A DNA stretch of 32,000 nucleotides from Lewinellaceae bacterium (GTDB taxonomy: Bacteria > Bacteroidota > Bacteroidia > Chitinophagales > Saprospiraceae), in contig CANJPT010000010.1 of NCBI GenBank assembly GCA_947476195.1, forward strand, positions 17,167-49,166, written 5' to 3'. How positions within the stretch are numbered: the stretch's first letter is position 1; each line of letters begins with the position of its first letter. The position numbers and the translations under genes are program-made. The notes under the pieces are model-generated. The model was not told the origin of the DNA. It worked only from the letters and a program-made list of their open reading frames with translations, and made no database searches. Shown piece after piece: positions 4,032 through 30,978 of this stretch.

Positions 4032-5148
4032 GTTTTAAAACTTTATATGTTAATTTAATGGATTCTCTTGCAATTGCATCTGCTGCATTCGGTCGTCCCA
4101 TCTGCCTTATACTTTCGCTTAGGCTAAAAGCAAGAGCTTCGCTTTCCAGAATCAGCATCGCATCTTGCAATAATTTCTCTCCTGCATCCCCGTCTCTAAC
4201 AAGACGAGCAGCGCCCTTTTCAACCAGTGCGAGTGCGTTTTTCGTCTGATGATCTTCTGCTACATTGGGAGAAGGCACCAGTATAGCTGGTTTTCCAACC
4301 AAACATAATTCACTGATGCTCAGCGCTCCAGCCCTTGAAATCACGACATCCGCCACTGCATAAAGTAAATCCATCCGATCAATGAAGGCAAAGCACCGAA
4401 CATTTGGCAATTTGGCTGTTTCCATCGCCGTGTATTCGTACTCATAAAATTTGCCACACTGCCAAATCACCTGAATACCGCCGTTTTTTTCAAAAAATTC
4501 CACATTATCACGCATCGCATTATTCAAAGTCCTGGCTCCAAGGCTTCCACCTATGACCACGATGGTTTTCTTTTCCGGGTCGAGATCATAGTAATTCAAG
4601 CCTTCCTCACGCTTTCCTTCCAGATGCCGAATGTCTGAGCGAACCGGGTTTCCCGTAAACACAATCTTTTCCTGCGGAAAAAACTGCTCCATATGATCGT
4701 ATGCTACACATACCCGAGCGGCCTTTTTGCCTAAAATTTTGTTGGTCACGCCAGCATAGGAATTCTGCTCCTGGATCAGCGTCGGGATACCAAAGCGCTG
4801 GGCCGCCCGCATGACCGGACCGCTGGCATACCCACCCGTACCGATCACAACATCTGGCTGAAACTTCTTAACAATGCTTTTGGCCTTCCATAAACTCCGG
4901 AGCAGCTTTATCGGGAATGAGAGATTTTTCAAACTCATGCTCCGCTGGAATCCTGCAATGTTCAGTCCCTCTATGGCGTATCCTGCTTTAGGGACGCGCT
5001 CCATTTCCATTTTGCCATGCGCACCTACAAATAAAAATTCGGCATCCGGACGCATCTTTTTTATAGCATCTGCAATGGCAATAGCCGGGAAAACATGCCC
5101 CCCTGTGCCGCCGCCTGTCACTAGTATTTTTAATCTTTGATCGTTCAT
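4018..5148 (-). CDS. murG: Undecaprenyldiphospho-muramoylpentapeptide beta-N-acetylglucosaminyltransferase MurG
   Basis: 376 aa with N-terminal ILVTGGGTGGHVFPAIAIA and GT28 architecture, in the dcw position after ftsW. It ends in TAG. Confidence 0.93.
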   Translation of the reverse strand: MNDQRLKILVTGGGTGGHVFPAIAIADAIKKMRPDAEFLFVGAHGKMEMERVPKAGYAIEGLNIAGFQRSMSLKNLSFPIKLLRSLWKAKSIVKKFQPDVVIGTGGYASGPVMRAAQRFGIPTLIQEQNSYAGVTNKILGKKAARVCVAYDHMEQFFPQEKIVFTGNPVRSDIRHLEGKREEGLNYYDLDPEKKTIVVIGGSLGARTLNNAMRDNVEFFEKNGGIQVIWQCGKFYEYEYTAMETAKLPNVRCFAFIDRMDLLYAVADVVISRAGALSISELCLVGKPAILVPSPNVAEDHQTKNALALVEKGAARLVRDGDAGEKLLQDAMLILESEALAFSLSESIRQMGRPNAADAIARESIKLTYKVLKHENQ

Positions 5149-5648: not shown

Positions 5649-6782
5649 CTATTCTAGTGATTCAATATACTTGGAAACACTTAAAATCATTCCCAGTGAG
5701 ATACACGTAAACAACACACTCGTTCCACCCATTGAAACAAGGGGCAAAGTCAATCCAGTGGCTGGCACCAGATTCAGATTTACCGCCATATTGGCAAGTG
5801 CCTGCACCGTCAGCATCAAACTGAGACCTATGGCTAAAAATGCTCCAAACGCCTTGGGACTTTGGGTAACGAGCCGCACATTTCGCAAAAACAGCAGCAC
5901 GTATAATGCTAACACGATCGTTCCACCCACTAATCCATATTCCTCACAGATAATCGCATAAATAAAGTCTGCACTACAATATGGCAGGTAATGTCGCATC
6001 ATAGAATTTCCAGGACCATTCCCAAAAATGCCACCTTTAGCAATGGCAATTTTAGCTTGTTGAACCTGATACCCGCCATCTTCATCATGGAGAAAGGTTT
6101 GAACGCGTTTTTCCCAGGTGTCTACCCTGACCAAATCAAGTTCCGGATAAACCTTACCAATACCAACCAGGATGACAAAAACCAACACCCCTAACATCAT
6201 CATCATGATGATGTATTGTGCACTTACCCGCCCCATGAACATTAATAATATACAGGTGGCGAACAAGATCATAGCCGTACTAAGATTGGAGGGTGCAATA
6301 AGTCCACAAACCAAAACTACCGGTATGATGATTGGAAAAAATGCCTGTCTGAGACTAGTGATATACTCTTGCTTCAATGTCAGAGCCCTTGCCACATAGA
6401 TAATAAGGGCAATTTTTGCCATTTCCGAAGGCTGAAAACTGAAGCCTCCAAAACTTATCCAACGATTTGCATCATTGATATTCGTACCAAAAAAAAGCGT
6501 AAAAATCAATAAAGGGATCGTCAACAATAGAAGTGGACGCGCCAATTGCTGGTATCGCCGATAATGTATCAGGTGACCCAGATAAATAAGAAATAAGCCG
6601 AAGGCCAGTTTTACAATATGCCCCATGATCATACCAGTCGTATTACCCCCATGGGTACGCCAGGCCTCCCAGCCAGAGGAGGAGAACACGGCCAGAATGC
6701 TGAATAAGCTCAGCACGGCCACGATCATCCAGATGGTACGATCGCCCCTAAGTTCTGCTGCTATGCGGTTGCCGAGTGACAT
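5649..6782 (-). CDS. ftsW: Peptidoglycan glycosyltransferase / lipid II flippase-family protein FtsW (SEDS family)
   Basis: 377-aa polytopic membrane protein with FtsW/RodA/SpoVE-like sequence (...LPYCSADFIYAIICEEYGLVGG...TGLTLPLVSMGGTS), located in the dcw cluster. Confidence 0.9.
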   Translation of the reverse strand: MSLGNRIAAELRGDRTIWMIVAVLSLFSILAVFSSSGWEAWRTHGGNTTGMIMGHIVKLAFGLFLIYLGHLIHYRRYQQLARPLLLLTIPLLIFTLFFGTNINDANRWISFGGFSFQPSEMAKIALIIYVARALTLKQEYITSLRQAFFPIIIPVVLVCGLIAPSNLSTAMILFATCILLMFMGRVSAQYIIMMMMLGVLVFVILVGIGKVYPELDLVRVDTWEKRVQTFLHDEDGGYQVQQAKIAIAKGGIFGNGPGNSMMRHYLPYCSADFIYAIICEEYGLVGGTIVLALYVLLFLRNVRLVTQSPKAFGAFLAIGLSLMLTVQALANMAVNLNLVPATGLTLPLVSMGGTSVLFTCISLGMILSVSKYIESLE

Positions 6783-15559: not shown

Positions 15560-15597
15560 GTATTATTTTGCTTTTAAGATAATGGCGTATAAATAGT

Positions 15598-16533
15598 TCA
15601 TCGTTTGTCGTTTATCGTTCTCTTCGCTGCTACCCGAAGCTTAGCACTTCTTGAACGGGCATTCTGTTTGGTTTCAAGCTGGCTTGCTTCTACGGGTTTC
15701 TTGGTGACCAGTTCCCAAGGCTTTGTGATATTGCCATAAAAATCCTGGTCTGGCTCACCTTTGACATTACCTGCTTTCATATAATTTTTCACCATCCGAT
15801 CCTCCAGGGAATGAAAAGTGATAACGGCCAATCTTCCACCGGGCGCCAGCATTTCCAACGCATCCTTCATGAAATCCTCCAAGGCTCCGAGCTCATCATT
15901 GACTTCCATCCGCAAGGCCTGAAACGCCTGTGAAAAATAACGCATTCGCTCACCCAACAGATTCTTGGTGCACAATTCAAGCAGATCGCCTGTGGTTCGA
16001 AAACGCTTTCGTTCCCGCTCCTGTACTACTGCATAGGCCAGCGTCTTAGAATTTCTCAATTCTCCGAGTTCACTAAAAATGCGCTGCAGCTCATCTACGC
16101 TTCGGGTATTGAGCAGGTCTGCAGCGGTTTCTCCGTCCAAGCGACTCATGCGCATATCGAGTGCAGCCTCAAAGCGATAGGAAAAGCCCCGCTCTGCAGT
16201 ATCAAGCTGGTGGCTACTCACGCCAAGGTCGGCGAGAATCCCGTTTACCGTACCTACCCTGACGCCTTCTGCGCGCAACTGGCGTTTCAAATGCCTGAAA
16301 TTCGATGGAACAAACGTGAAGCCTGAATGGCTTGAAAACGCTTGCTGTTCGATATTTCGTTTTGCATCCTCATCCTGATCAAAGGCAAACAGACGACCTT
16401 TTTCGCCCGTTTTTTCAAGTATCAATTTGGAATGACCACCACCGCCAAATGTTGCGTCCACATAGACCCCTCCGGGCGTAATGCCTAGAAGATCAATACT
16501 TTCGTGTAATAGGACAGATTCGTGGTACACCAT
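15598..16533 (-). CDS. rsmH: 16S rRNA (cytosine1402-N4)-methyltransferase RsmH (MraW)
   Basis: MVYHESVLLHESIDLLGITPGGVYVDATFGGGGHS... is the canonical RsmH N-terminus and SAM motif. I place the start at ATG 16533. The 28 extra codons in the track ORF run through AT-rich spacer. Confidence 0.93.
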   Translation of the reverse strand: MVYHESVLLHESIDLLGITPGGVYVDATFGGGGHSKLILEKTGEKGRLFAFDQDEDAKRNIEQQAFSSHSGFTFVPSNFRHLKRQLRAEGVRVGTVNGILADLGVSSHQLDTAERGFSYRFEAALDMRMSRLDGETAADLLNTRSVDELQRIFSELGELRNSKTLAYAVVQERERKRFRTTGDLLELCTKNLLGERMRYFSQAFQALRMEVNDELGALEDFMKDALEMLAPGGRLAVITFHSLEDRMVKNYMKAGNVKGEPDQDFYGNITKPWELVTKKPVEASQLETKQNARSRSAKLRVAAKRTINDKR

Positions 16534-22590: not shown

Positions 22591-22796
22591 GTTGTAGGAT
22601 GTGGGATATAGGATGTAGGAAAAGGTTCTTGGTATTAGACTATAAAAGTTTTATACCGTGGTCATTTTAGTGACAAAAGTAGTCTGATGACAATCAATTT
22701 AAAAAAGATTTGGTTTTGAATGCCATTATAATAATTCGAAAGGCAATTTTGCCGGACAACGGATTCAAAAATACATCATACATCCAACATAAAACA

Positions 22797-23261: not shown

Positions 23262-23420
23262 GTGAAAACAGTCCACTTTCAAGTAACTTTGAGCCCGAAT
23301 ATTTGGAATGCCTAATCAGGTTACGGGACATTTTGACATTGGATGTTGGACATGCACTCTAAAAACTTGAAAATCATTCACTTCCTGAATCGTGTCTAAC
23401 GCCTCCTGTCCATTAGTCTA

Positions 23421-24710
23421 ATGTATCCATCACTTCTAAGAAAGGAAAAAACGCTTGCCGTAATAGGCCTTGGATACGTCGGGTTGCCGATCGCCCTTGA
23501 GTTTGCGCGTGATTTTCGGGTGATTGGGTACGATATTGATGCTGTGCGTATTGCTATGATGCAGCGAGGAGAAGACCCCAGTCGGGAACTCGGCCCGGAA
23601 GAATTTACAGGTCGTGACATTCATTTTTCCTCTCAATTAGAGGACCTGGCCCAAGCCCATTTTTTTATAGTCGCCGTCCCGACCGATATAGATGAGCATA
23701 AGGTTCCCAACCTGAACCCACTGAAAAAAGCGTCCACAGATATTGGCAGCGTCCTAAAAAAAGGCGATTACGTAGTATACGAATCTACTGTATATCCAGG
23801 CTGCACTGAAGAAGATTGCCTCCCCATTCTGGAAAAATTATCCGGGCTGAAAATGGGGCCTGATTTCAAACTCGGCTACTCCCCCGAACGCATCAACCCG
23901 GGAGACAAAACAAAACCACTCACACAAATATTAAAGATTGTAAGTGGCTCAGATGCAGAAGCCCTGGAGGAAATTGCTAAAATCTACAGGCATATAATTG
24001 AAGCTGGAATTTACTGCGCCAGCACCATAAAAGTAGCTGAGGCCGCCAAAGTTATTGAGAATACCCAGCGCGATTTGAATATTTCGCTGATGAATGAACT
24101 CGCTATGATCTTTGACCTTATGGGCATTGATACACAGGAAGTGATCAAAGCCGCCGGAACCAAGTGGAACTTCCTGAAGTTTTACCCTGGACTTGTGGGC
24201 GGACACTGCATCGGGGTAGACCCTTACTACTTATTGCATAAATCCGTCGAACTGGGTTACGAACCACAAGTCATTCTCAGCGGCCGAAGGGTCAATGATG
24301 GTATGCCAGCATGGGTAGCTAAAAAAGCAGTGCAACTCCTGCTCAAAAAAGGCAAAAGTCCGCACCTGGCCAAAGTGCTCATTCTCGGAATCACATTCAA
24401 AGAAAACGTATCTGATATTCGAAACTCCAAAGTTGCCGCCATGGTCAACGAACTTCAGGACTTTTCAATCAATGTCCAGATCGCAGACTGCCATGCAAAC
24501 CCCAACGAGGTAGCCAAAGAATATAACCTGAGACTCAGCGACAACATTTCAACAGGATATGATGCCGTAGTAGTCGCCATAGGACACGATGAATACCGAA
24601 AGTATGATAGTGCATTTTTTAAATCAATCATGGGTGAAAACCCTATTTTGATGGATTTAAAAGCACTTTATGAAGATGTTGAGGAAGGAATCGAATATTG
24701 GAGACTATAA
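23421..24710 (+). CDS. wbpA: UDP-N-acetyl-D-glucosamine 6-dehydrogenase-type nucleotide-sugar dehydrogenase (WbpA/TviB/WbpO family)
   Basis: 429 aa with the N-terminal NAD fold LAVIGLGYVGLPIAL and the catalytic Cys context GLVGGHCIGVDPYY. The specific assignment is inferred from the adjacent WbpE/WbpB/WbpD-like genes. Confidence 0.75.
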   Translation: MYPSLLRKEKTLAVIGLGYVGLPIALEFARDFRVIGYDIDAVRIAMMQRGEDPSRELGPEEFTGRDIHFSSQLEDLAQAHFFIVAVPTDIDEHKVPNLNPLKKASTDIGSVLKKGDYVVYESTVYPGCTEEDCLPILEKLSGLKMGPDFKLGYSPERINPGDKTKPLTQILKIVSGSDAEALEEIAKIYRHIIEAGIYCASTIKVAEAAKVIENTQRDLNISLMNELAMIFDLMGIDTQEVIKAAGTKWNFLKFYPGLVGGHCIGVDPYYLLHKSVELGYEPQVILSGRRVNDGMPAWVAKKAVQLLLKKGKSPHLAKVLILGITFKENVSDIRNSKVAAMVNELQDFSINVQIADCHANPNEVAKEYNLRLSDNISTGYDAVVVAIGHDEYRKYDSAFFKSIMGENPILMDLKALYEDVEEGIEYWRL

Positions 24711-24712
24711 TG

Positions 24713-24857
24713 AATGTGGTCAATGAGTAAAATGTGGTCAATGTGATTTGGGCTCGACCAGGCCACATTAAGCACATTGGCCACATTCTTCTAATTGACT
24801 ACATTAATCATATTGAACACATTGTCCACATTAATCTAATTGACCACATTTTACATT
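24713..24857. repeat. 9-bp-periodic two-orientation array of the motif ATTGNNCACATT, filling the whole intergenic region
   Basis: There are four reverse-orientation 9-mers at 24713..24748: aatgtggtc, aatgagtaa, aatgtggtc, aatgtgatt. A 12-nt spacer (tgggctcgacca) follows. Then come ten in-phase forward 9-mers at 24761..24850: ggccacatt, aagcacatt, ggccacatt, cttctaatt, gactacatt, aatcatatt, gaacacatt, gtccacatt, aatctaatt, gaccacatt. A partial unit follows. aatgtggtcaat (24713 and 24731) is the exact reverse complement of attgaccacatt (24839). Confidence 0.85.
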
Positions 24858-26015
24858 ATGATACAAATGGTTGACCTCAAAACCCAATACACCCGCATCA
24901 AGAGCGAGATAGACCGCGAGATGCAGGAAGTATTTGATTCTTGTATTTTCATCGGCGGACCTAAAGTGAATGCTTTTCGGGAAAGCCTGGAGCAATACCT
25001 CGGCGTAAAACACGTCATTCCATGCGCCAATGGTACCGATGCCCTCCAAATTACCATGATGGCTCTTGGCCTAAAACCGGGCGATGAAGTGATCGTCCCG
25101 GCTTTTACCTATGTGGCGACTGCAGAAGTGATCGGATTGCTTGGGCTCACGCCTGTCATGACGGACGTAGACCCTGGCACGATGAATATTACGGCAGCGA
25201 ACATTGAAGCCGCAATCACACCACGTACCAAAGCCATTGTACCGGTCCATTTGTTCGGACAATCAGCCGACATGGCCTCCATCATGGCGCTGGCTAAAAA
25301 GCACAATTTATTTGTAATCGAGGACAATGCGCAGGCGATTGGGGCGGATTATACCTTTCCTGCCGCTGGCACAACGTCCGGTGACGGAGAAACAAAGAAG
25401 ACTGGCACCATCGGTCACTTTGGCTGCACCTCCTTTTTCCCTTCCAAAAACCTCGGCTGCTATGGAGATGGAGGCGCCATGATGACCAACGATGATGCCC
25501 TTGCCGCAAAGGCCCGGATGATTGCCAACCACGGGCAGTCTAAGATGTACTACCATGATGAGATTGGAGTAAACTCCCGGCTGGATGCCATGCAAGCCGT
25601 AATCCTGAATGCAAAACTAAAACACCTCGACGAGTATAATGCCGCCCGAAACCGTGCTGCAGACTACTACGACCGATTTTTCGGGCAAATTCCACAGTTA
25701 CAGATTCCTGCACGCGAAACAAATTCAACACACGTTTTCCACCAGTATACCCTCCAGATCAATACGCCAGATTCGGTGAAAACCCGGGATGAATTGAAAG
25801 CCTTTTTGCTGGAAAAAAGCATCCCATGCATGATCTATTATCCTGTTCCATTGTATGATCAACCCGCATTTGCACCTTTCTGGAAAGACGGAAAATTGCC
25901 TGTAACAGAAGCACTTTGCGCATCGGTGTTTTCGCTACCCATGCACTCGGAAATGACAGAAAGTGTTTTAGCTGAGATCACTGGAGCGGTGAAGGCATTT
26001 TTTGAGACCCGGTAA
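24858..26015 (+). CDS. wbpE: DegT/DnrJ/EryC1/StrS-family PLP aminotransferase (WbpE-like UDP-3-keto-GlcNAcA aminotransferase)
   Basis: It carries MIQMVDLKTQYTRIKSEID..., DALQI, and the PLP-lysine context TSFFPSKNLGCYGDGG. Function is inferred from the family and the neighbouring genes. An alternative start exists at 24867. Confidence 0.8.
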   Translation: MIQMVDLKTQYTRIKSEIDREMQEVFDSCIFIGGPKVNAFRESLEQYLGVKHVIPCANGTDALQITMMALGLKPGDEVIVPAFTYVATAEVIGLLGLTPVMTDVDPGTMNITAANIEAAITPRTKAIVPVHLFGQSADMASIMALAKKHNLFVIEDNAQAIGADYTFPAAGTTSGDGETKKTGTIGHFGCTSFFPSKNLGCYGDGGAMMTNDDALAAKARMIANHGQSKMYYHDEIGVNSRLDAMQAVILNAKLKHLDEYNAARNRAADYYDRFFGQIPQLQIPARETNSTHVFHQYTLQINTPDSVKTRDELKAFLLEKSIPCMIYYPVPLYDQPAFAPFWKDGKLPVTEALCASVFSLPMHSEMTESVLAEITGAVKAFFETR

Positions 26016-26025
26016 AAAATTCAAA

Positions 26026-27000
26026 ATGTCCAATTTCGCATTAATCGGCGCAGCAGGCTACATCGCACCCAGACACATGAAGGCCATTCGTGACACTGGT
26101 CACCGATTGGTGGCAGCATACGACCCTCAGGATTCTGTCGGTGTAATGGATAGTTATTTTCCTGATGCCGACTTTTTCACCGAGTTCGAGCGTTTTGACC
26201 GACATCTTGATAAATTGAAACGACGCGGAAAGTCTATTGACTATCTAAGTATTTGCTCCCCAAATTACCTCCACGATGCGCACATCCGTTTTGGACTGCG
26301 ACTCGGTGCCAATGTGATCTGCGAAAAACCCCTTGTTCTGAATCCCTGGAATGCCGAAGCACTTCAGGAAAACGAAGCAGAAACAGGTAATAAAGTCAAT
26401 ACTATCCTGCAATTACGCTTACATCCTGAATTGATTTCGCTGAAAGAAAAAATCGATCAGTCAAATGTCCAACACGAGGTAGACCTGACTTATATCACTT
26501 CCCGGGGCAATTGGTACTACACTAGTTGGAAAGGTGATCTGGCCAAATCCGGCGGGATCGCTACGAATATTGGTATCCATTTTTTTGATATGCTGATCTG
26601 GATATTTGGACCTGTGAAAGAAAATATAGTGCACCTGCATACCCATGACCGTGCTGCCGGATTCCTCCAATTGGAAAAAGCCCGGGTTCGATGGTTTTTG
26701 AGTATCAATGCAGACACTTTACCTGCACAAGCCAAAGCACAGGACAAACGGACCTACCGCTCTATCATTGTCAATGGGGAGGAAGTGGAGTTCAGTGAGG
26801 GCTTTACCGACCTGCATACCCGCAGTTATGAAGAGATCTTTGCCGGCAACGGCTTCGGCATCGAAACAATTCTTCCTGCCATTAAGATTGCTCATGCCAT
26901 TCGGACCATCGAACCTATTGGACCAAAGGGACATTTTCATCCAATGGCCAGCCTTCCATTAAGTAAACATCCACTCAAAAGTGGGCACTTAAATTGCTGA
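26026..27000 (+). CDS. wbpB: Gfo/Idh/MocA-family oxidoreductase (WbpB/WlbA-like UDP-GlcNAcA 3-dehydrogenase)
   Basis: The N-terminus [33 protein letters not shown] closely resembles the WbpB-type N-terminus as I remember it. It lies between the aminotransferase and the acetyltransferase. Confidence 0.78.
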
Positions 27001-27578
27001 TGCCATACTTTTCACATCCTACTGCGATCATAGACCCTGGTGCCCGGATCGGTGAAGGTTCCCGGATCTGGCATTTTTGCCACGTCTCCTCTGGCGCTGT
27101 CTTAGGCGAAAACTGCATTTTGGGGCAAAATGTCTTTGTGGCTGACGGCGTAACCCTTGGCAATGGGGTAAAAGTGCAAAACAATGTCTCTATCTACACC
27201 GGCGTAACTTGCGAAGAAGATGTGTTTCTTGGTCCCAGCATGGTTTTTACCAATGTGATCAACCCGCGCAGTTTTGTATCACGCAAAAACGAATTTCGCC
27301 CTACCCTCGTGAAGCAGGGGGCTAGCATCGGTGCCAACGCAACGGTTATTTGCGGAGTGACCTTGGGACGATATTGTATGATCGGTGCAGGAGCTGTTGT
27401 CACGAAAGATGTACCGGATTTTGCGCTCATAACAGGGGTGCCTGCTCGCCAAACCGGTTGGATGAGCCGGTTGGGACACCATCTCCATTTTGAGGCTAGC
27501 AAAGCAATTTGTGAGGAAAGCAGAGAAACGTATATTCTAAAAGATGGAATATGTTGCTTACAGCACAATATGTTGTGA
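27000..27578 (+). CDS. wbpD: Left-handed beta-helix N-acetyltransferase (WbpD/WlbB-like)
   Basis: Hexapeptide repeats run throughout ([13 protein letters not shown]..., [13 protein letters not shown]..., [14 protein letters not shown]...). ATG 27000..27002 overlaps the wbpB-like TGA (26998..27000) by 1 nt (cTGATGcc). Confidence 0.78.
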
Positions 27579-30002: not shown

Positions 30003-30953
30003 ATGCACATAAATGACAAGATATACATAGCTGGCCACCGAGGAATGGTGGGCTCGGCCATCCTGAGAAAACTCCAGACAGCGGGTTTTGCAAATTTTGC
30101 ACTTGCGGATTCAAGCGCACTTGATCTGCGCAACCAGTTGGAGGTTAGCGAATTTTTTCGACGAAAAAAGCCTGACCATGTGTTCCTTGCAGCGGCCAAA
30201 GTCGGCGGAATTTTCGCAAACGATACCTACCGGGCTGAGTTCCTATACGATAATTTGATGATTCAGGCCAATGTAATTGAATCTGCTTATCGCCATGGCG
30301 TAGAAAAACTGATGTTCCTCGGCTCCTCTTGTATTTACCCAAAACTGGCCCCGCAACCCTTAAAAGAAGCGGCATTGTTAACTGGCCTTTTAGAGCCCAC
30401 CAACGAGCCTTATGCCATCGCTAAAATCGCAGGAATCAAACTTTGCGATGCTTATCGGGCGCAATATGGTTCTAATTTTATCAGTGTAATGCCCACCAAT
30501 CTGTATGGGCCCAATGATAATTATCATCCACAGAACAGCCATGTGTTGCCTGCTTTGTTGCGTAAATTTCACGAAGCAAAAATAGCCAACGCGCCTTTTG
30601 TTACCCTCTGGGGTACCGGCACACCACGCCGCGAATTCCTCCACGTAGACGACCTCGCTGATGCTTGTTTTTATTTGATGCAGCACTACAATGAACCAGC
30701 ATTTGTGAATATCGGTACAGGGGAGGATCTTCCAATTTTTGAACTGGCCTTAATGGTCCAGCGTATCGTTGGCTACCATGGCACTATACAGCATGACCCT
30801 AGCAAACCCGATGGAACGCCTCGTAAACTTTTGGATGTAAGCAAATTAACCGGACTTGGCTGGAAAGCCAAAATTAATTTGGAAGCAGGCATACAAGCAG
30901 TTTATCAGGAGGTAAAAGACAAATTAAACCCTCAGGCATCCCTTACATCATAG
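30003..30953 (+). CDS. fcl: GDP-L-fucose synthase (GDP-4-keto-6-deoxy-D-mannose 3,5-epimerase/4-reductase)
   Basis: [40 protein letters not shown] and NLYGPNDNY are canonical Fcl/WcaG features. It lies immediately after gmd. Confidence 0.94.
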
Positions 30954-30978
30954 TTCATACATCATAGTTCATACATCA
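30944..30978. repeat. 14-bp tandem duplication (2.5 copies of tacatcatagttca) spanning the fcl stop codon
   Basis: Unit 1 is 30944..30957, unit 2 is 30958..30971, and a partial unit (tacatca) is 30972..30978. The fcl TAG (30951..30953) lies in unit 1 and is repeated in unit 2. The array ends 2 nt before the next ATG. Confidence 0.85.

Follow-up and report, generated by a model that had tools for sequence, protein, structure and literature searches.

What occupies the gap between the wbpA-like gene and the sugar aminotransferase gene of a Lewinellaceae bacterium, and does the layout of this gap follow a rule that reaches beyond the single locus? In the stretch of contig CANJPT010000010.1 analysed here (32,000 nucleotides (nt), hereafter the window, to which all unprefixed positions refer), the 147 nt from the stop codon of the former gene to the ATG of the latter are nearly all repeat and form, at 24713-24857, two arms of 9-nt-phased units in opposite orientation. 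We conclude with high confidence that this spacer belongs to a repeat family whose copies are dispersed across Saprospiraceae genomes (Bacteroidota), and our best reading is that this 12-mer family is new, while falling within the known STRR/TAACTGA/REP-like class of intergenic repeats. Most worth following is its codon-anchored, two-armed architecture with a strict polarity.

The family was queried with the strict two-unit pattern ATTGNNCACATT-N6-ATTGNNCACATT (20 specified bases) on two strands of a 596-Gb genome collection, in which about one match is expected by chance according to our own arithmetic. Among the matches listed, the pattern was found in more than 115 genome stretches, nearly all of them from Saprospiraceae/Saprospirales or related Bacteroidota metagenome-assembled genomes (MAGs), and single MAGs often contributed at least ten matching contigs, which bears out the dispersed family suspected in an earlier note on this DNA. 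The 12-mer is preserved across many species-level MAGs whose coding DNA is ~70-78% identical, and 460 family units yield the consensus ATTG[A]CCACATT, at spacings of mainly 9 and 18 nt, with 17, 19 and 20 nt also found. The copies measure ~60 to 340 nt with 2 to more than 12 units per arm and have only the unit in common, their centres being without shared sequence. Tandem arrays were located outside open reading frames (ORFs) in 222 of 245 cases. At the DNA level, the window itself is matched best by two segments of a single contig from the uncultured Saprospiraceae MAG CAZKBH01, which are syntenic and 77-88% identical. Neither plasmid nor phage collections gave a match by blastn, no Rfam family reached the gathering threshold for the window or seven related loci, and a literature search with the 12-mer returned chance primer matches only and nothing relevant on Saprospiraceae repeats. 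A pattern scan of IMG/VR gave 11 matches; all consist of plain 9-mer tandem repeats, mostly of coding character and not arranged in two arms, and were therefore judged unrelated.

The arms of the family copies are arranged in one order only. Of 131 arrays, 34 contain both orientations, and all of these place a minus arm before a plus arm (AATGTG..CAAT, then ATTG..CACATT), the reverse order occurring in none. Furthermore, the orientation depends on the adjoining codon: blocks within 30 nt of a start codon present the C-form ATTGACCACATT in the sense of the gene in 43/44 cases (43:1), and blocks within 30 nt of a stop codon present the G-form AATGTGGTCAAT in 61/67 (61:6). Read as mRNA, G-poor (AUUGACCACAUU)n tracts thus lie upstream of starts and G/U-rich (AAUGUGGUCAAU)n tracts after stops. 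The spacing is narrow on either side, as the last unit ends 5-12 nt from the ATG in 40 of 49 cases and, at stop codons, the first unit begins at an offset of -2 to +5 nt in 49 of 62 cases, often sharing the AA of TAA. This anchoring to gene ends does not reflect a mere lack of room, because it persists where a gap offers 100 nt or more of other sequence: 39 of the 51 arrays in such gaps are no further than 15 nt from a gene end, versus 7.9 expected (p ~5e-22). Of the one-orientation arrays, 30 of 31 occupy the side predicted by the rule.

The G/C polarity rule is broader than the 12-mer motif. Tandem arrays of other units (7-16 nt) in the same loci carry more C than G in the mRNA sense when adjacent to a start (27/31) and more G than C when adjacent to a stop (39/45), as exemplified by AACTCAT/GAGTTAT, AATGATG/ATTCATC and TTAGTTG. 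Such arrays of other units occur in ~12% of the remaining gaps (58/477). Repeat-free leaders in the same genomes are likewise G-poor (G 15.5%, C 26.3%), and repeat-free trailers are unskewed.

Several observations concern the borders and companions of the family. The Verrucomicrobiota MAG SPRUCE 520 (GC 0.64) carries the element CCAGTTTTTTGGCAAAAATGGCC-AATGTGGCCAAT-GCAGCC-AATGTGGCCAAT-GCAGTG on at least six contigs (L054, L072, L079, L092, L102, L117), with the 12-mer and 18-nt spacing of the Saprospiraceae family but with a conserved flank of its own; these matches were not accepted as family copies and represent a separate dispersed element containing AATGTGGCCAAT twice, perhaps by chance or perhaps through a shared recognition factor. 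Typical family arrays are also present on low-coverage contigs of the Thermoanaerobaculia MAG.385 (L021, L028, L060, L087, L116), which may be mis-binned Saprospiraceae contigs. At L042 5108-5702, the minus and the plus block directly enclose a 123-amino-acid ORF assigned to the 23S rRNA intervening-sequence protein family (PF05635, E = 3.6e-17), as though this were the cargo of a two-armed copy. In several MAGs, a G+C-rich REP-like hairpin, CACTTTACCCGCCGAAGC...GCGTAGGCGGGAC, recurs beside or inside arrays (L019 ~5040-5100, L124 ~5690-5740, L118 ~520-560, and the spacers of L130 and L128); in L130 it forms perfect 33-nt inverted repeats around the whole 480-nt spacer.

How does the copy in the window conform to this architecture? 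Its parts, the genes next to it and its two predicted folds are as follows.

23421..24710, + strand: wbpA/TviB-like UDP-N-acetylglucosamine 6-dehydrogenase, the upstream gene, with its stop codon TAA at 24708-24710.
24713..24745, + strand: left arm, G-form in the mRNA sense, with AATGTGGTCAAT at 24713 and 24731 and weak 9-nt units interleaved.
24746..24760, + strand: non-repeat centre ATTTGGGCTCGACCA, ~15 nt, the loop of the predicted hairpin.
24761..24850, + strand: right arm, C-form, ten in-phase 9-nt units NNNCACATT.
24851..24857, + strand: linker or partial unit TTACATT, 7 nt, between the last unit and the ATG.
24858..26015, + strand: DegT/DnrJ/EryC1-family sugar aminotransferase, the downstream gene (Pfam PF01041, E = 1.8e-113).
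26002-27000, + strand: GFO/IDH/MocA oxidoreductase, 3' of the aminotransferase gene.
26994-27578, + strand: hexapeptide acetyltransferase, 3' of the oxidoreductase gene.
24713..24805, + strand: predicted main hairpin in the proximal register, left arm paired with the units at 24770-24805.
24703..24860, + strand: predicted alternative distal register, left arm paired with 24818-24850, an inverted repeat of 33 nt that is 85% complementary.

The left arm sets in 2 nt past the wbpA-like stop codon, and the earlier description of a two-orientation, 9-nt-phased array filling the gap proved correct, including its copies of the 12-mer on either side. Counted as 9-mers, four in-phase units (24716-24751) are followed by a centre of 9-12 nt and ten further in-phase units (24761-24850). 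The right arm contains six copies of ATTGNNCACATT, the complement of AATGTGGTCAAT, besides weak units. Its strong 12-mers ATTGNNCACATT start at 24776, 24794, 24812, 24821 and 24839, accompanied by ATTAAGCACATT at 24767; the form ATTGACCACATT is exact at 24839 and present with one mismatch at the other four of these positions. The array is far beyond chance: with up to one mismatch, ATTGNNCACATT matches the window 12 times versus 4.55 +/- 2.2 in shuffles (maximum 10), and 8 of the 12 matches fall within the 147-nt gap, which is also the sole cluster of CACATT/AATGTG hexamers in the window. The self-match of the spacer reaches 0.55-0.65 at lags of 9, 18, 27 and 36 versus ~0.25 at other lags, the top lag-9 scores of the entire window lie here, and TRF reports periods of 9, 18 and 27. 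Gene calls were concordant on ten near-identical contigs (L001-L010), and the wbpA-like protein contains the N, central and C domains of Pfam UDPG_MGDP_dh as well as NCBIfam PRK15182 (E = 1.4e-140) and TIGR03026.

Other short repeats are present in the window. TGTAGGA is repeated four times at 22593-22620, adjoining the start of a HerA-like gene and flush with the gene end, TACATCATAGTTCA spans 30944-30978 (2.5 copies) from the fcl stop to the following start, and GTTTATC (3.4 copies, 15596-15619) is flush with the end of mraW; of these, the two arrays adjacent to starts (22593-22620 and 30944-30978) contain little G when read in the direction of the adjoining gene. The gap between a NUDIX gene and wbpA (23310-23420) holds a different dispersed hairpin repeat, GGACATTTTGACATTGGA...TGTCCATTAGTCT, which recurs in near-copies at L032 6947-7019 (89% identical) and, in L131/L137, between wbpA and the aminotransferase gene.

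What, then, might the spacer do? The + strand RNA of 24700-24880 folds with a minimum free energy (MFE) of -55 kcal/mol (z = -5.09), chiefly by the proximal hairpin, in which the left arm is mostly paired (P(unpaired) 0.14) and the tail at 24806-24857 is about half unpaired (0.52). Seven arm pairs have offsets that are multiples of 9, and alternative pairing registers therefore exist, as the earlier note had expected for the mRNA halves just upstream of the start codon; computationally, at least, that expectation holds. In the distal register (-40.5 kcal/mol when constrained), the stop-codon region at 24707-24712 (ATAATG) pairs with 24854-24859 (CATTAT), including the A and U of the start codon, whose AUG is then almost fully paired (P(unpaired) 0.04). 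One-orientation C-form arrays are nearly structure-free, with, for example, -1 to -3.5 kcal/mol over gaps of 51-56 nt. A sigma-70-type consensus scan of the + strand, which does not model Bacteroidota promoters, returned no promoter-like site in the array, and a scan for terminators returned none in 24711-24857, where the stem is rich in A and U and no U-run longer than UUUU comes after it. An intrinsic terminator was hence rejected, as the interval lacks a G+C-rich stem with a U-run. The flanking genes all lie on the same strand.

Taken together, we propose that the array would be transcribed as an intercistronic part of a wbpA-aminotransferase-oxidoreductase-acetyltransferase mRNA. The two G-form units past the wbpA stop would pair with the first C-form units into a long imperfect stem-loop of the REP/STRR type, which could stabilise or process the 3' end on the wbpA side, and the remaining ~50 nt of G-poor, weakly structured repeats might act as a leader directly before the AUG where ribosomes load. 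Bacteroidota translate without Shine-Dalgarno pairing. In the distal register, the base of the stem would join the wbpA stop region to the start codon, such that a terminating ribosome could unmask the downstream start, a form of translational coupling. As a whole, the explanation that we favour, namely a dispersed codon-anchored repeat that is co-transcribed here and provides a hairpin and a G-poor leader, has in our judgement about an even chance of being right; the RNA-level function of leader and hairpin is held with moderate to low confidence. A bolder extension, which we regard as unlikely, is that polar repeat modules might serve as a general Shine-Dalgarno-independent mRNA punctuation in Saprospiraceae. 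Situated 5-12 nt upstream of the AUG, G-poor tracts would attract ribosomes or a dedicated RNA-binding protein (S1, Csp-like), and G/U-rich tracts after stops would mask, couple or insulate; the 12-mer family would be the most widespread "word", and some activity would write or copy repeats at gene boundaries.

A number of results weigh against the proposed RNA function. Across 20 two-armed copies, the sense fold had the lower MFE in 12 and the antisense fold in 8 (p = 0.33); folding is equal on both strands, and there is therefore no strand-specific (G-U) signature of selection at the RNA level. The pairing of stop and start regions is not general in the family (mean 0.15), nor is there a consistent surplus of units on the start-codon side across it. 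Arrays fill co-directional, convergent and divergent gaps between ORFs in roughly background proportions, and operon coupling can thus not be their common role. In convergent gaps, all eight two-armed arrays keep the same polarity, an outcome equally compatible with selection and with an architecture intrinsic to the element. In addition, gene ends in the family loci were defined by a simple ORF finder (first ATG, at least 90 amino acids), and the loci had been selected by the motif itself. Finally, the two arms of one element share variant units at 0.63 versus 0.51 expected, a value reached by 63 of 2000 shuffles; such sharing fits a pairing constraint and copying within the element alike.

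Comparison of related genomes indicates on which time scale such arrays change. An identical wbpA protein is encoded on 23 metagenome contigs, ten of which (L001-L010, from different samples and assemblies) were examined: the spacer is 147 nt in all of them, with 4 single-nucleotide polymorphisms and without any indel or gain or loss of units. In the closest relatives (L126/127, aminotransferase 90% identical), the orthologous spacer is 48 nt long with two C-form units, and L129 (aminotransferase 87% identical) has a two-armed copy of five units beside a conserved core, compared with 8 units in the window. More distant relatives carry inverted arrays of other units at the orthologous position, namely GTGATTG, TTATGAG/CTCATAA (12-15 copies), TTAGTTG, GATAATGG and a 14-mer present 21 times. 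Conversely, two gaps that are free of family arrays in the window, mraW-ftsL and one other, are occupied by such arrays in the closest GTDB relative; filled and empty site boundaries were not obtained from this comparison, the spacers being too diverged to align. Stable within the population and differing between relatives, the arrays must therefore be long-lived, being resized or replaced on the scale of species to genera.

The conserved core beside the L129 copy deserves mention in its own right. It is an invariant 19-nt sequence, ACTTATGAA[A/C]GGCGAAGCC, found on the + strand of the wbpA-aminotransferase spacer of 15 relatives (L128-L142, proteins 70-88% identical), ~100-400 nt ahead of the start codon of the aminotransferase gene, for example at L129 864-882 and L132 2201-2219. 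A 7-bp hairpin (CATAAGT-loop-ACTTATG) lies before it and a T-run often behind it; Rfam gave no match, and the core might represent a cis-acting regulatory RNA or a leader belonging to the polysaccharide operon. It is not present in 24711-24857 of the window, having been lost in the window lineage and in L126/127. Two spacers among these relatives, L130 (66-617, 8/16/24-mers of the AATGACCC type over 550 nt, ~35 copies at a 16-nt period) and L141 (1657-1994, an intergenic array of GTGTGATTTAAGAT in 21 copies), show how far such tracts can expand.

Because convergent gaps keep the same polarity, a selfish element with an intrinsic architecture stays a serious rival to the favoured explanation. 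The spacer would then be a selfish or neutral palindrome of the REP/MITE kind, or a self-expanding minisatellite, spreading and being resized by some copying mechanism, tolerated in gaps and without a role at this locus, and the polarity would mean that only harmless arrangements survive (G-poor tracts at starts, and after stops no naked RNA rich in C). Such an origin agrees with the patchy way in which relatives have gained and lost arrays, with units that vary in number and spacing, with the absence of any pattern in gene function or gap type and with a palindrome equally stable on both strands; the variant units shared between arms are what intra-element copying predicts, and the arrays of other units in other gaps suggest a general mutational tendency. 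Yet random insertion plus tolerance does not predict the excess of end-anchored arrays in roomy gaps, nor is it easily reconciled with the same 12-mer persisting across MAGs with such diverged coding DNA. There is, moreover, no target-site duplication, conserved internal sequence, transposase among 199 flanking ORFs, or plasmid or phage copy, and on balance we consider this account possible but doubtful. Quite improbable, in our opinion, is an array read as DNA, in which the 12-mers would bind a nucleoid-associated protein, a regulator or a ribbon-helix-helix-type binder that polymerises along the 9-nt units and acts as a mark or an insulator at the borders of genes. A directional 12-mer conserved across species, the 9/18-nt spacing in a fixed inverted arrangement and the lack of strand asymmetry in RNA folding would suit it, and the polarity can be described without reference to RNA, as it is invariably the AATGTG end that points towards the nearest gene. 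However, a single sequence-specific binder cannot explain the arrays, because quite different units (7- to 16-mers) share the same positions and the same G/C polarity, also in the orthologous spacer, and spacings of 9, 17, 18, 19 and 20 nt do not hold sites on one helix face. The DnaA or iteron version of this idea, raised in the earlier note, has a resemblance to build on, in that direct-repeat arrays of 9 nt (DnaA) or 17-22 nt (iterons) are typical of such sites and some units read TTGTCCACA or TTGACCACA. It fails at the consensus TTWTNCACA, which needs A/T at position 3 and T at position 4: in the 460 units, position 3 is an invariant G and position 4 is A in 70%, G in 17% and T in 7%. The conserved ATT flanks are also foreign to a DnaA box, no replication genes were found near the locus, and the family occupies dozens of gene-end loci per MAG, beside unrelated genes, instead of one origin-like site or a few per replicon.

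Two further readings start from the repeat tract itself. A phase-variation switch, in which slipped-strand changes of unit number would set the expression of the downstream polysaccharide genes, had likewise been put forward, and a short tandem repeat adjoining surface-polysaccharide genes, with 2, 5 or 8 units among species-level relatives, would suggest it. We consider it highly improbable, as the ten contigs with an identical wbpA protein show no length polymorphism within the population, copies of the family lie in housekeeping operons (mraW-ftsL in the relative) and beside genes of all kinds, and imperfect units lower slippage. Finally, the frame at 24734-24871 might encode a leader peptide of ~45 amino acids with xHI tripeptide repeats. 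The frame stays open through the right arm because units have a length divisible by 3, its only possible starts are GTG, and in the family any frame is interrupted wherever units are 17, 19 or 20 nt apart, none being conserved across copies, which moreover occur in both orientations relative to genes and also after stop codons; such a small ORF is scarcely credible.

Among known element classes, REP, BIME and REPIN sequences of proteobacteria offer one parallel. They are extragenic, often transcribed, lineage-specific and multicopy inverted pairs that form hairpins, vary in copy number between strains and leave no target-site duplication, and each of their units, which alternate in orientation, forms an imperfect palindrome measuring 20-40 nt. 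In contrast, the Saprospiraceae unit is a non-palindromic 12-mer in direct blocks, and assignment to REP/REPIN was rejected, ATTGACCACATT being not self-complementary and the unit no imperfect palindrome with a conserved 5' tetranucleotide. A RAYT or transposase partner was not apparent either: the 199 ORFs flanking arrays, to which this search was directed instead of whole genomes, contain no recurrent protein family and no RAYT-like gene, and five ORFs between or next to arms belong to other Pfam families (23S_rRNA_IVP, EAD11/TIR, DUF3098 and others). No direct repeat indicative of a target-site duplication was seen on either side of the 34 two-armed copies, and a MITE was discarded on this ground together with the missing conserved centre, the variable lengths of ~60-340 nt and the lack of a nearby transposase. 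A looser parallel is the BrickBuilt MITE of Porphyromonas gingivalis, which has a 23-nt unit in one orientation and leader and tail subunits with small inverted ends, its copies lying 49-591 nt from coding sequences (PMC4596501). It is likewise a multicopy intergenic tandem-repeat element of Bacteroidota with variable repeat number, whereas the Saprospiraceae family is without leader and tail and consists of two inverted blocks that abut codons.

The closest resemblance is to repeats of the STRR/TAACTGA type. As expected of these, the family has a short head-to-tail unit (~6-9 nt in that class; here a 9-nt phase with a 12-mer core), many loci per genome within a restricted lineage (at least ten contigs per MAG), a preferred orientation and position at start codons, and unit numbers that differ between related genomes (2, 5, 8). 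TAACTGA direct repeats are intergenic and occur in Beggiatoaceae, Cyanobacteria and a few Bacteroidetes (MacGregor 2015, PMC4679880); they are mostly forward and end a few nt upstream of start codons, at the Shine-Dalgarno position, and a translational role has been proposed, with no spreading mechanism known (PMC4679880). Both are short tandem G-poor units at many intergenic loci with a lineage-restricted and patchy distribution, and the reverse-orientation set of Flexibacter litoralis, placed just past a stop codon, shows the very polarity found here (PMC4679880). They differ in the unit, which is 7 nt in TAACTGA and unrelated in sequence, in the post-stop reverse block, which in the Saprospiraceae family is as common as the forward block, and in the inverted pair bracketing a gap, which is usual here but rare in TAACTGA (one indirect repeat, BOGUAY). 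For cyanobacterial STRR heptamers, an intergenic hairpin between hupS and hupL has been described, for which a function in transcript stability or translational coupling was proposed and is unproven (PMC2670836). These, too, are dispersed intergenic short tandem units, from filamentous bacteria, whose two orientations form a hairpin between co-transcribed genes, differing in phylum, unit length and unit sequence. Codon anchoring and the G/C polarity rule have, to our knowledge, not been described for STRR. As for the leader, the omega sequence of tobacco mosaic virus, made of ACAAUUAC repeats and CAA tracts, is G-poor and enhances Shine-Dalgarno-independent translation; it resembles the right arm in being a G-poor, C/A/U-rich, weakly structured direct-repeat tract right before the AUG, although this comparison is a functional analogy only, without sequence relation. 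The spacer had been called not recognisable as any described element, which stands for the 12-mer, found neither in the literature nor in Rfam, and not for its class, which has been described (PMC2670836, PMC4679880).

Following from our analysis, a single odd spacer turns into a testable rule at the level of a family, in which a repeat takes its orientation from the start or stop codon next to it. The lineage concerned is abundant in freshwater and wastewater and largely uncultured, and many of its intergenic gaps are built of short tandem repeats. If these were merely tolerated selfish repeats, they would caution annotators against calling DnaA boxes, iterons or phase switches, and would still explain assembly breaks in Saprospiraceae MAGs. 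If functional, they would bear on the decades-old puzzle of the role and spread of STRR/TAACTGA-type repeats, and on how Bacteroidota, which do without Shine-Dalgarno sequences, mark their start codons and coordinate the genes of an operon.

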